From contig OZ024742.1 in the NCBI GenBank assembly GCA_964016885.1, positions 339,264,001 to 339,328,000 of the forward strand: a DNA stretch of 64,000 nt, in the 5' to 3' direction. This document shows, in pieces, positions 20,976 to 50,100 of the stretch. The translations under genes and the position numbers were made by a program. The stretch is from Eledone cirrhosa (lineage: Eukaryota). The notes under the pieces are model-generated. The model had not been told where the DNA came from. It ran no database searches and was given only the letters and a program-made list of their open reading frames with translations. The first letter of the stretch is position 1, and every line of letters begins with the position of its first letter.

Positions 20976-21176
20976 ACCCAATGGTCAAACACTCATGATA
21001 TATTATTGTAAATATATGCATATGTATGTATGTATGTATGTATGTATGTATGTATGTATGTATGTATGTATGTATGTATGTATGTGTGTGTGTGTGTATG
21101 TATGTATGTATGTATGTGTGTGTGTGTGTATGTATGTATGTATGTATGTATGTATGTATGTATGTATGTATGTATG

Positions 21177-22335
21177 TTCTTCGGGTTTTATAATTTCACA
21201 AGAGAGAGAGTTGCTTTCTAACATAGACACAAGACTCTCTCATTGGAATTTACACAACATCAACTAGGTAGATATGTATGTATGCATGCATGTGTAGATA
21301 TGGATGTTATTGTATGTGTGGATGTGTATGTTTTGAGTTGTATGTGTGCATATGCATACGCTTTGTATCTGTACATGTGTATATGCAGTTATTAGATGCA
21401 AAATGTTTGGAATGTTTTACATATTTTTACTGTTTCATTAATGGATTGTACTTGTAATTTCCTAACTAGTTGTGTTCTTTCTGTTCCTGTGAAGCCTAGC
21501 TTCTCAAGATTTGTATTGAGGCAGTTACTAACATACCCCAGTGCCCCAATAATCACAGGCATAAATCTGAAGGTGTAATCAGGGTGGAGTATCTGCAGAT
21601 TTCTCATCAGTTCTGCATAAATATTCTCCTTTTGCACTAATCTTTGATATTATATTGGCATCTGCTGGGCAGCTAATTTCCACTACTGTGCATGTTTTCT
21701 TCTCCCTGTCCCATATCATAATATCTGGTCTGTTATGCCTGCATTTTATTGGGGTTTTTACTGGAACATTCCACCAGTACTCTTTCATATTATGTACATG
21801 GATGTCTTCCACATTGTTGTAGCTTTTAATGTGTTTATTATCGGGGCTATCTTTTTTACGAACTGCATTGTACAGTGTTTTGGCCACTACATCATGCTTC
21901 ATAGGTAGATAGTACCGCGATGACATCTTTGGGCAGCTGCTGATGATATGGGTGATATCCTCGATGTTAGTTCTGCAGAGTCTGCACTTGTTATCACATC
22001 TAGGTGTTTTGTCTGCATCCCTATCTCTTTTGTGAATCAGGTATTTCGTGCTAATCTCCTGTTCTTGGATTGCAAAAGCGTATCCTTCAAAGTGGGAGCC
22101 AATATAGCCGTTGTTGGTCCAAGATAGACTACTTTCCTTATCTATATTACTCTCACTTTGGAGCTTCCTGGCAACATATCCATGCATGATTTTTTGCTGA
22201 TAGGCATGCAGTTTTTCACCCATGGATTCACTGCGATACTGTTGAGCGACATCCCTGGGTGTGAGTTTTTGATTATCACACAGGGAATATCTCTCAAGTA
22301 GTCCCTTCCCAACTCTCATGATCTTACCTGTTTCA
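21177..22335 (-). mobile_element. R4/Dong-like LINE 3' fragment (CCHC finger plus REL endonuclease), family 1
   Basis: AIQEQEI, CRLC..EDITHIISSC, HNRPDIMIWD..VVEISCP; homologous to 46020-47197; (TATG)n on both sides. Confidence 0.9.
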
Positions 22336-22939
22336 TATGTATGTATGTATGTAAAAAAACAAAACAAAAAAAAAACACAAACAAACAAAAAACTCAAAAT
22401 AACAAAACACACACACACACACGCACACAACACAACAAAAACATCAACTGCCACCACCGCCACCACCGCCGCCATCACTATCACCAGCGACCGGGCCTTA
22501 AGAAAACAACTTTAATAATAATTTTTCTGCTTTTGGCACGGATCCAGCGACAAGCCCAGCGCATCACTGGTACTCTCTTTTGTTGACTCCGTGGCAATGA
22601 AAAGCAAGGTTGACCTCGGCGGGATTTGAGCTCAGAGCGTGGAGAGCCATAACTCTATACTGTAAAGCAATTATAATAATACTGGACTGTAATACGATCG
22701 GCTTCAACTATACAAACTCTTGAAAGTCAACAGTTGACATAATCTTGTAATCTTGTATCAGTAATGACGGTAATATATATATATATATATATATATATAT
22801 GTGTGTGTGTGTGTAAGTGAGTAGCGTGTGTGTGTTTGTTTGTATGTATGAGTGTTGCTGTGTGCGCGCATATGTATGTGCGTGAGTGTATGTCGTACGT
22901 ATAAGTGTCAATAAGTGAGTTTTTTTTTTGTTTTTTTTT

Positions 22940-46100: not shown

Positions 46101-47197
46101 AGGGAAGTCACTCAGCAGCATCGCAGTGAATCTATGGATGAAAAACTGCATACTTATCAGCAAAAGATCATGCATGGATATGTTGCCAGGAAGCTCCAGA
46201 GTGAAAGTAATATATATAAGGAAAGTATTCTATCTTGAACCAACAACCGCTATATTGGCTCCCACTTTGAAGGATACGTTTTTGCAATGCAAGAACAGGA
46301 AATTAACACGAAATACCTGATATACAAAAGAGATAGGGATGCAGGCAAAACACCTAGATGTGATAACAAGTGCAGACTCTGTAGAATAAACATCGAAGAT
46401 GTCACCCATGTCATCAGCAGCTGTCCAAAGATGTCATCGCTGTACTATTTACCTATGAGGCATGATATAGTGTCCAAAAAACTGTACAATGCAATCCGTA
46501 GAAAAGATAGCCCCGATAATATACACATTAAAAGCTACAACAATGTGGAAGACATCCAGATACATAATATGAAAGAGTACTGGTGGATTGTTCCAGTAAA
46601 AACCCCAATAAAATGCAGGCATAACAGACCAGATATTATGATATGGGACAGGGAGAAGAAAACATGCACAGTAATGGAAATTAGCTAACCAGCAGATGCC
46701 AATATAATATCAAAGATTAGCAAAAAGGAGAATATTTATGCAGAACTGATGAGAAATCTGCAGACACTCCATCCTGATTACACCTTCAGATTTATGCCTG
46801 TGATTATTGGGGCACTAGGATATGTTAGTGATTGCCTCAATACAAATCTTGCGAAGCTAGGCTTCACAGGAACAGAAAGAACACAACTAGTTAGGAAATT
46901 ACAAGTACAATCCATTAATGGAACAGTAAAAATATGTAAAACATTCCAAAAATTTTGTATCTAATATCTGCATATACACATGTACAGATACAAAGCATAT
47001 ACACATACACACATACAATTCAAAACATACACATCCACACATACAATAACATCCATATCTACACATGCAGGCATGCATACAAAATCTACCTAGTTGATGT
47101 TGTGTAAATTCCAATGAGAGAGTCTTGTGTCTATGTTAGAAACCGACTCTCTCTCTCTCTATTAGTAAAACTTTGTGAAATTATAAAACCAGAAGAA
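43195..47197 (+). mobile_element. Near full-length R4/Dong-like LINE (RT, CCHC, REL), family 1, decayed
   Basis: KPPGRD, NYRPIAC, DYRKAFDSVPH, GIFQGD, FVDDLKLY, CRLC, RPDI..EIS; many stops; exact (TACA)n flanks at 43108-43194 and 47198-47280. Confidence 0.92.
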
Positions 47198-50100
47198 CAT
47201 ACATACATACATACATACATACATACATACATACATACATACATACATACATACATACATACATACATACATACATACATGATGGCTGCCCCCTCGTTAT
47301 CGAGTATGGCTATTGCACGAGAAAAAAAATCTATATATCTATATATATACATATACACACACATACATACATACACATATATATATACATACATATATAT
47401 ATACATACACATATATTAATAACAATAATAATAATAATAACAACAATAATAATGACGACAACAACAATAATAATATACATATACATATATATATATGCAC
47501 ACACACGCACACACATAAACATATCTATACACACAGACGATAGCAACTACCAGCGCTGCGATCGAATGTGGCTTTTTAGCCCAGCCAATGATCTAAAATG
47601 TCTTGCACAGAGTCGGCAACCAAAACATTCGCTGGGAATAGCCGGCTGTGGTTGGAGTTCGTGTACTTTTGCATGTCGCTTGAGCCCTGCTGCTGATTTA
47701 CATTCTCTACCACATGTTTGGCAAGCATGATGAGTAGCATCTCCAACAGCAGCATGGTAGTCAACCACTGGTCTTACTTTATGACTGCGAAGATGACTTT
47801 CGAGTCCAGCTTTGCTTAGGCAGAGTCTCGCACAGCCGCTGCATGTCAGCACCATAGGAGGACCCTCGCCGTCTGGAAGTGCAACAGCAATTCCCTTCCT
47901 CACATCCCGCTTTACTTTCTCGTATGCGATTCGAGATGCCTCAAAGGCAACTTTTCCCTCATATACAGTCTTTCTCCATTTATTACGATCAGCAGCAATA
48001 TTTTCCCATGTATCAGCAGGAGATGTTAGCGTCTTTCAAGGAATCCTTATACCTCTTTTTTGGTTTATGTGGCGGTCGTTTTCCTTTAAGTAACTCTCCA
48101 TAAAAGTATTTTGGTATTCTAGAATCCTTCATCCTGGCAAGGTGACCACTCCAACGGAGTCGTTGCTTAAGCACAAGAGCTTCTATATTGTCACACATAG
48201 AGCTTTCCAAAATCTCGACATCACTGATGTGGTCTCTCCAGTGAACGCCATGGATCCGTCTGAGACACATCTGATGGAAACGCTCCAATTTCTTAAGGTG
48301 GTGTCGATATGTGACCCAGGTCTCGCAGGCATAAAGAAGACAAGAGAGCTCACATGCCTTGTACACCTTTACCTTTGTCCTCCTGCATATGTCTCGCCGA
48401 CCCCAGAGTCGCCTTTCTAGCTTTCCGAAAGCATCACTTGCTTTCCTAATTCTAAGTGAGATTTCACTATCAAGGTTGCTGTATCGATTGACAGTGCTTC
48501 CCAGGTAGACAAACTGATCAACCACTCCAAGTCGTTTACCATACACATAGATATTTGGTTCAGTGTACTGCTTACCAGGGGCAGGTTGGTACATGACGAC
48601 GGTTTTCTTGAGACTGACAGTCAATCCTAGGGCAGTGCAAGCGTCAGAAAATGCATTCAAAATGTGCTGCATATCACTCTCTGTGTGCGCTACAAGATCG
48701 CAATCATCTGCATACAAGAGGTTTCTTATGATTGATGTAAATACTTTTGTCTTTGCAGCAAAGCGCCTGATGTTAAATATGCTGCCTGAGGTTCGATATC
48801 GGATGTAAACACCATGCTCGCAATTCCTGAATGCAATACAGAAAACCATTGCAAAGTATATGGCAAACAGGGTCGGTGCTGGAATATCCCCCTGTTTCAC
48901 TCCATTTTTTTTACTGAGATAGGCTCCGACATGTTACCTCCGACATTAACCCAAGCCTTCATGTCGTCATGGAAAGACCTAACTAAAGCAAGGAACTTAT
49001 CAGGGCAACCAAGTTTCTGGAGAACCTTCCATAATGCATCTCTGTTAACAGTTTCGAAAGCTTTTGTCAGATCGACAAAAACCTGATACAGATCCAAGCC
49101 GTGTTCCATGCACTTCTCCTGGAGCTGTCTAGCTGAGAAGATCATATCAGTAGTGCCGCGTCCAGCACGAAAACCAGATTGACTTTCAGGAAGAACACAA
49201 TCTGCAATGTGTGTCAGCAGACGGTCCAGAAGCACCCTACATAAAACTTTCCCTACGACAGAAAGCAATGATATACCTCTGTAGTTCCCACAATCATTCC
49301 TGTTACCCTTTCCCTTGTACAAGACCACCATTACTGCATCTCTCCAGTCCTCACGTACGGATTCATTAGCCTGCATATCCTGCCAAACAGTGAAGATATT
49401 GCAGGAGTCTCTCACCACCATATTGTAGGAGCTCAGCATGTATGCCATCCATACCGGAAGACCTTCCACTGTTCAGCTTCGAGATAGCCACTGCAACATC
49501 CACAAGCGTCGGAGGTTCTGCGAGAGCTACTTTCACAGGACTTTCTGGAATGAGATTGAGGAAAACTTCACTGACGACAGACGGCTGATTCAAAAGATCA
49601 TCAAAGTGCTCTCCCCACCTTGGTAGAATTCCTTGTGAGTCACCAAGAAGTTATTTGCCATCCTTGCTGCGAAGCGGTGTCACCAGAGAAGACGGTCCAT
49701 AAACCTCACGCAAGAGACTGTACAACAGCTTTGTGTTATTGGAATCTGACGCAGTTTGTATCTCACCAGCCTTCTCACTCCACCACTGATCCTTCAACTG
49801 AGAAAGACTCCGCCTAACACGTGATTTTACATCCTTGAGTTCCTCATGCAACGTATTCCTCTCCTGTGGTTTTGCCGTCAAGTAGCGTGACAGAGCACGC
49901 CTCTTATCAGCCAACAAGTCTTCTATATGTACATCATTCTCATTACACCAGTCCTGGTGTTTTCTCTGCACCAATCCCAGAACACGCTTGCCTACATCAT
50001 AAACCGACTTTTTAAAGGTCGGCCAATCCTCACCAAGATCTGCAGCCTGCATCTCTTCTTCCAATGTCCTCTTCACATTTTTATCCTTAAGACGAGCAGC

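Follow-up and report, generated by a model that had tools for sequence, protein, structure and literature searches.

Do the Dong-like retrotransposons of the octopus Eledone cirrhosa choose a four-letter microsatellite as their target, and if so, is that target laid down for them by another retrotransposon? The question is raised by a stretch of 64,000 nucleotides (contig OZ024742.1 of assembly GCA_964016885.1, positions 339,264,001 to 339,328,000; the window, in whose own coordinates positions are given below), in which long interspersed nuclear elements (LINEs) of the R4/Dong type sit in (TACA)n tracts next to elements of an RTE family. An earlier note on this DNA had proposed that RTE tails create the target sites. 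Our answer, to which we give a rough probability of 0.75, is that the two Dong-like families of the window, A and B, make up a branch of R4/Dong with a protein directed at four-letter repeats and not at (TAA)n, and that the RTE family is a co-tenant on the opposite strand, not the maker of the target. The genome measures 3.0 Gb.

All four Dong-like insertions in the window (A1, A2, A3 and B; Table 1) are flanked on either side by (TACA)n, read in the element's own orientation. They fall into two families, as had been noted: A1, A2 and A3 are 93-95% alike, and B shares ~50% protein identity with A. All four had been described as insertions with a restriction-like (REL) endonuclease, which is correct for A1, B and A3 but not for A2, a 293-nt piece with no endonuclease motif that was placed by DNA similarity. 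The R4/Dong-like anatomy of A and B was confirmed: reverse transcriptase and, at the C-terminus, zinc knuckle and PD..D/E endonuclease lie in a single open reading frame (ORF) that matches Pfam RVT_1 and zf-RVT, has no apurinic endonuclease (APE) domain, and carries CxxC...H...C, RHD and NRPD...VE motifs that align across A, B and a third family, C. The best relatives of solved structure are R2 proteins. Both A and B are ~34% identical to family C, and the nearest named relative of B is the Argonauta hians protein P0144 (60% identity). The N-terminus of the R4 clade is described as a Myb/SANT-like domain without zinc fingers (PMC7998251; for this and all other papers cited, statements refer to the available part of the text). 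The N-terminal 100 residues of B are predicted to form three helices (predicted local distance difference test score, pLDDT, 79), and the top structural matches of this model include Zeste, GT-1, SANT and Myb domains at weak scores (best Z 5.8, root-mean-square deviation 2.5, 64 aligned); Foldseek returned nothing at E<=0.001. At these weak scores, the predicted fold fits the reported domain. A 5' self-cleaving ribozyme resembling that of hepatitis delta virus is a further R4/Dong-clade feature (PMC3774820); no ribozyme family was among the 110 Rfam matches in 20400-54300, for which no custom ribozyme model was built.

The association with the repeat holds throughout the genome. Among the 39 best-scoring non-self matches to each family, taken with 10 kb of context, an 8-nt TACA run within 30 nt upstream of the element (the strict 5' call) was present in 31/39 family-A and 34/39 family-B copies, 65/78 together, and a TGTA or TAA run in none of the 78. 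TACA also lay upstream of 25/29 full-length family-A copies. Such a run occurs in 1.4% of 113,840 random 34-nt windows (400 kb of random sequence), which excludes chance as the origin of the flank. Most of the sampled copies thus carry the repeat on their 5' side, and the proposed (TACA)n specificity is borne out. The 5' truncation points of A and B lie at many different positions, and at least 5,081 exact 3' ends of family A occur in the genome. Tract length did not differ between the 5' and 3' sides of A/B (medians 6 and 7 units, p=0.31), and no clear target-site duplications were found for them, all 10 candidates among the 78 copies being repeat-like and uninformative.

Family C, found inside an RTE untranslated region (UTR) of the same genome, has TAA upstream at 14 of 16 visible junctions and TACA at none; 14 further loci ended within the element. 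The (TAA)n target of Dong in the narrow sense is therefore that of family C (14/16) and not that of A/B (TAA 0/78, TACA 65/78). At clean truncation junctions, microhomology to TACA exceeded the null in B (mean 2.5 versus 0.84 nt, 12/33 junctions usable, p=5e-5) and in A (1.6 versus 0.82 nt, 10/37 usable, p=0.02). The tract therefore probably existed already at the moment of 5' joining. These observations bear on the explanation that there is no targeting, and that the flanks are owed to repeat expansion by slippage after insertion, to segmental duplication, to the survival of copies within neutral repeat clusters or to errors of assembly. The genome is microsatellite-rich, and some arrays are indeed tandem duplications (at locus L157, a unit of A, B and the RTE-family element Z is present three times). 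However, breakpoints vary among copies and yet nearly all adjoin TACA, and junction microhomology, strict strand polarity and family-specific repeats all speak against it, leaving this explanation barely credible. Median identity of copies was 95% for A, 97% for B (to the majority sequence) and 97% for the coding RTE element, RTE-1, and the overlapping divergence is consistent with co-activity. Family B is young by this measure, with long open frames in some copies.

The RTE family has repeat flanks of its own. RTE-1 consists of one ORF with APE endonuclease and reverse transcriptase (Pfam Exo_endo_phos and RVT_1 at 47547-50838) and has no ORF1; from this domain build, we take it to belong to the RTE clade. 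Its C-terminal part (47547-48035, minus strand) apparently holds three C2H2 zinc fingers (Pfam). The 3' motif is the true end of RTE-1, following the ORF in 21/29 coding copies, and is common to the non-coding derivatives; genome-wide, 12,717 exact RTE-family 3' ends are followed by TGTA. RTE-1 ends in a short CAT/CAC repeat, after which TGTA was seen in 10, TA in 6 and other sequence in 5 of 21 copies, the end not being found in 8. Besides coding copies there are bipartite non-autonomous elements, such as 22354-23275, which has both ends in common with RTE-1 and lacks an ORF. The repeat also precedes 25/28 short RTE-family elements in a sample chosen by 3' end. The Z elements are 66-76% alike to the 5' and 3' parts of RTE-1, and an autonomous partner of Z was not found. 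When 40 of them were taken in genome order regardless of flank, TGTA lay upstream of 28 and TACA of 1, and an alternating TA/TG run preceded 36/40, compared with a background of 7.6%. Their 3' ends were followed by TGTA in 15, TA in 14 and mixed or other sequence in 9 of 38 cases, the TGTA content upstream and downstream was correlated (rho 0.56, p=2e-4), and informative 12-14 nt duplications were seen in three copies (L403, L420 and L426). Because the followers vary, track the upstream flank and come with such duplications, the '(GTAT)n tail' of the RTE family is mostly duplicated target and not tail.

Two other readings of these elements were rejected: that the segment X (53965-54158) is the RTE-1 5' end, because other RTE-1 copies differ in their upstream sequence, and that RTE-1 is an insertion within an independent short element, because the 3' motif follows the ORF in 21/29 copies and the segment Y precedes it in long copies. 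A full 609-nt non-coding Z copy lies at 31974-32582, and 10,337 exact Z 5' ends occur genome-wide. Short RTE derivatives carry a hairpin close to the 3' end, into whose AT-rich loop one family of short interspersed nuclear elements (SINEs) has inserted twice (24151-24343 and 42677-42869). L103 has >900 nt of (CCA)n within its RTE-1 5' UTR.

Do RTE tails nevertheless supply the sites? By this account, RTE elements bring (TGTA)n tails to fresh sites, and the Dong-like families have become specialists for such tails. In Lepidoptera, microsatellites arise from RTE 3' ends (PMC2887409), and three of the four window copies adjoin an RTE-family 3' motif, antiparallel to it, as the earlier note had seen; the motif at 24425, GCAACCATCA, is one base off the motif quoted there. 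Only the end at 47281 closes a coding RTE, those at 23276 and 24425 belonging to short non-coding derivatives. A1 does follow a degenerate RTE-like remnant, a weak tblastn match at 20093-20284 (E 2e-6). Not mentioned in the earlier note is a further RTE-family element that stands head-to-head past the 5' tract in each of the four cases (22354, 23603, 26688, 43107). Among the 78 copies, 14 adjoin an RTE-family 3' end tail-to-tail (12 by BLAST), against 2/16 random tracts, a small background (Fisher p=0.73); 15 had been flagged, and the motif match at L177 was dropped as false on inspection. In the first 36 Mb of the sequence C1, 9/50 Dong-A ends (18%) adjoin an RTE-family 3' end, against ~11% of tracts (p=0.10), a figure that takes ~120,000 tracts as extrapolated from 16 in 400 kb. 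Since the tract background is small, a weak enrichment at RTE tails is possible. Head-to-head RTE 5' ends, however, neighbour 26/78 copies, an excess over tail-to-tail contacts that is not significant (26 versus 15, p=0.12), the repeat also lies upstream of the RTE family, which apparently has no fixed (TGTA)n tail, and relatives from other organisms also use four-letter repeats. On the neighbour counts, the upstream repeats and the variable 3' followers, we reject RTE tails as the origin of the targets and consider such an origin very improbable. RTE does supply a Dong target in one setting, where the TAA-targeting family C lies antiparallel within (ATT)n runs of RTE-1 UTRs (L094:4897-5996, L099:2252-3351, L117:864-1201 in joined, RTE-oriented coordinates, and L145).

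What the two groups share is the repeat, read from opposite strands. Between 21.0 and 27.4 kb on the plus strand, A1, a non-coding RTE-1 derivative, A2, a second non-coding derivative, B and a 5'-truncated RTE-1 follow one another in this order, each preceded by a tract, with all Dong copies in one direction and all RTE-family copies in the other. Likewise, Dong-A and RTE ends within 10 kb of each other form 34 concordant pairs and 1 discordant pair, and an RTE end lies within 10 kb of 25/50 Dong-A ends, against 2.7 expected. Dong copies also stack on each other, with 15 upstream and 13 downstream tandem neighbours among the 78 copies. The arrays that Dong and RTE families build in these shared repeats are polar, each group keeping to the strand opposite to the other's. 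Their antiparallel orientation follows from this strand choice and is not separate evidence. Arrays also grow through local duplication, as at L157.

Relatives in metagenomes extend the pattern. Of 80 loci fetched, we inspected the 26 that reached or nearly reached the element's 3' end, and found (TACA)n flanks in 1, (TACT)n in 4, (TAA)-type repeats in 19 and none in 2. The repeat stands at both ends in L320 (TACA) and L321 (TACT), at the 5' end in L319 and L322 (TACT), and at the 3' end in L324 (TACT). In two quick maximum-likelihood trees (67 rows/390 columns and 33 rows/727 columns), the seven four-letter rows, namely A, B and the five metagenome relatives, share one side of a branch whose approximate likelihood-ratio support (SH-aLRT) is 99-100, and family C falls among rows flanked by TAA. 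Within the four-letter clade the deepest split is held by TACT; B joins L320 (96.6) and A joins two TACT rows weakly (62), so that the number of switches is unsure. Close four-letter relatives are 46-56% identical, with targets one base apart (TACT, TACA). The clade appears nested inside TAA elements (98.7), tentatively so because the root is a very distant RTE.

It might also be argued that pairing and not the endonuclease picks the target, in that an enzyme of loose specificity would nick alternating AT-rich DNA, and an insertion would follow only where the RNA's 3' repeat can pair with the primer strand. The ends of A/B enter at least one ACA(T) unit in 69/78 copies, and the RTE family here is loose in its repeats (TA, TGTA, TG), in keeping with this idea. 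Set against it are the strict TAA of family C, which shares its genome with A and B, the 3' TACA of A/B, which is stricter than the TGTA of Z (53/78 versus 15/38, p=0.005), and a repeat type that follows the protein tree, although an inherited tail would follow the tree too. We regard pairing as an unlikely general account, and as the likelier one for the RTE side. Protein recognition is what we favour for A/B, and looser recognition together with pairing for the RTE family.

Several points weigh against our interpretation. Flanks cannot tell endonuclease recognition from RNA-DNA pairing. The A and B samples are best matches and not random copies; 13/78 have no strict 5' TACA run, some being rearranged or interrupted and L158, L167, L175, L185 and L280 showing none, and in two copies the 3' end leads into a different repeat, which is (CA)n for L171 and (TAAA)n for L268. 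Two family-B junctions have one breakpoint in common and are possibly non-independent. Among coding RTE-1 copies, a strict TGTA run lies upstream of only 12/29, and junction microhomology is not significant (p=0.11). Only two of the five four-letter metagenome relatives show the repeat at both ends, and the trees have no bootstrap, the distant RTE root mentioned above and no named R4, Dong or Rex6 row, protein searches having returned no such reference. The placement of A/B among (TAA)n-flanked elements of like build thus speaks for the R4 clade indirectly.

If A and B do target four-letter repeats, their protein would nick the (TGTA)n strand and prime reverse transcription there, and a truncated cDNA would then anneal via a few bases to the upstream TACA run. 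Under target-primed reverse transcription, which is well established, A/B would prime on the (TGTA)n strand and RTE on the opposite one. With repeat left on both sides, each insertion would add a landing site and arrays would grow. RTE elements, together with the short non-coding forms derived from them, would be looser users of the same repeats, inserting in (TA)n/(TGTA)n and nicking the strand opposite to Dong, and the outcome would be polar arrays, Dong in one direction and RTE in the other.

Compared with known systems, A and B share with Dong of Bombyx mori and the Dong-like R4 clade a single ORF, a possible Myb/SANT-like domain at the N-terminus (in B, a weak model match), reverse transcriptase, zinc knuckle, REL endonuclease, microsatellite on both sides and tandem stacking. 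The target of Dong-like elements is (TAA)n in an ostracod and also in the majority of insects, molluscs and cnidarians (PMC7998251). Family C fits these elements; A and B differ from Dong in their (TACA)n target, their distance from family C and their relatives at (TACA)n or (TACT)n. Togen is (TG)n-specific and some HERO families are microsatellite-specific (PMC4640811), and Mino is (AC)n-specific (PMC3124438). As far as described, these three resemble A/B in having the repeat on both sides, a fixed orientation and arrays, but belong to other clades and use other repeats, with no TACA or TACT target in the available text. Waldo, Kibi and Koshi are further microsatellite-specific LINEs. The short elements here keep 5' and 3' parts of RTE without an ORF, as do the bipartite non-autonomous Bov-A and RTESINE (PMC5786205), and unlike them are located within tracts of (TA)n/(TGTA)n. 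Published accounts call RTE sites not sequence-specific (PMC2887409) or give them a Tn-TA signature (PMC6007223, PMC13295347). Octopus Dong-R4 and RTE are both abundant and recently active, with no target sequence stated in the available text (PMC13282606, PMC8967140, PMC10294476). No report of a TACA- or TACT-targeting Dong was found in the literature available in part, a coverage outside which lie Repbase, Dfam, Kojima and Fujiwara 2004 and supplements, where a prior description is possible.

Table 1. Dong-like and RTE-family elements of the window and the tracts that flank them.
Feature	Position	Strand	Remark
(TGTA)n/(TG)n tract	21023..21177	.	3' flank of A1
Dong-A copy A1, 5'-truncated, with the region of zinc knuckle and REL endonuclease	21178..22337	-	
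(TGTA)4 tract	22338..22353	.	5' flank of A1
Non-coding RTE-1 derivative (5' UTR and 3' end), SINE inside	22354..23275	+	upstream sequence common with coding RTE-1 copies L094, L100, L104, L119
Dong-A copy A2, final 293 nt only, flanked by two short TGTA tracts	23295..23587	-	
Non-coding RTE-family element (X+Y+3' motif), SINE within its AT-rich loop	23603..24423	+	
(TGTA)21 tract	24425..24516	.	3' flank of Dong-B
Dong-B copy, 5'-truncated, reverse transcriptase and REL endonuclease	about 24517..26461	-	
(TGTA)57 tract	26462..26687	.	5' flank of Dong-B
RTE-1, 5'-truncated, begins right after TGTA tract	26688..27356	+	
Non-coding RTE-family element, 5'-truncated, TGTA at both sides	42618..43107	-	
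(TACA)21 tract	43108..43194	.	5' flank of A3
Dong-A copy A3, nearly full-length, ORF broken: predicted N-terminal three-helix domain, reverse transcriptase, zinc knuckle, PD..D/E endonuclease	43195..47199	+	
(TACA)20 tract separating A3 from RTE-1	47200..47280	.	
RTE-1: part of 5' UTR, APE endonuclease, reverse transcriptase, C2H2 fingers, microsatellite-rich 3' UTR, 3' motif	47281..51423	-	

Elsewhere in the window, frames that look Penelope-like by eye (reverse transcriptase and a GIY-YIG-like C-terminus) lie at 51354-53144 (minus strand, just upstream of RTE-1), 12909-14573 (plus) and 29968-31056 (minus). A perfect 596-nt inverted repeat with arms 89 nt apart occupies 40367-41647, other inverted repeats lie at 11000-16771 and 35161-35572, and a tRNA-like match of 50.5 bits is found at 38324-38394 (minus).

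Taken together, the evidence is for A and B being a new target variant of a known element type, a variant that marks a whole sub-lineage. The odds seem about even that this is a widespread, apparently unreported R4/Dong sub-lineage that left the ancestral (TAA)n for four-letter repeats, switched between (TACT)n and (TACA)n more than once, and here shares its tracts with an opposite-strand, microsatellite-seeking RTE family. For RTE annotation, the caution is that an apparent tail can be target. REL-endonuclease retrotransposons are under development as gene-insertion tools, for which target change is an open question, and relatives one target base apart (TACT, TACA) beside TAA cousins make domain-swap tests feasible. 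If the reading is true, the four-letter sub-lineage, with family C as a TAA control in the same genome, would be a natural series for how REL retrotransposon proteins read their targets. It would also offer a possible way for microsatellites and LINE arrays to fuel one another in a large genome.

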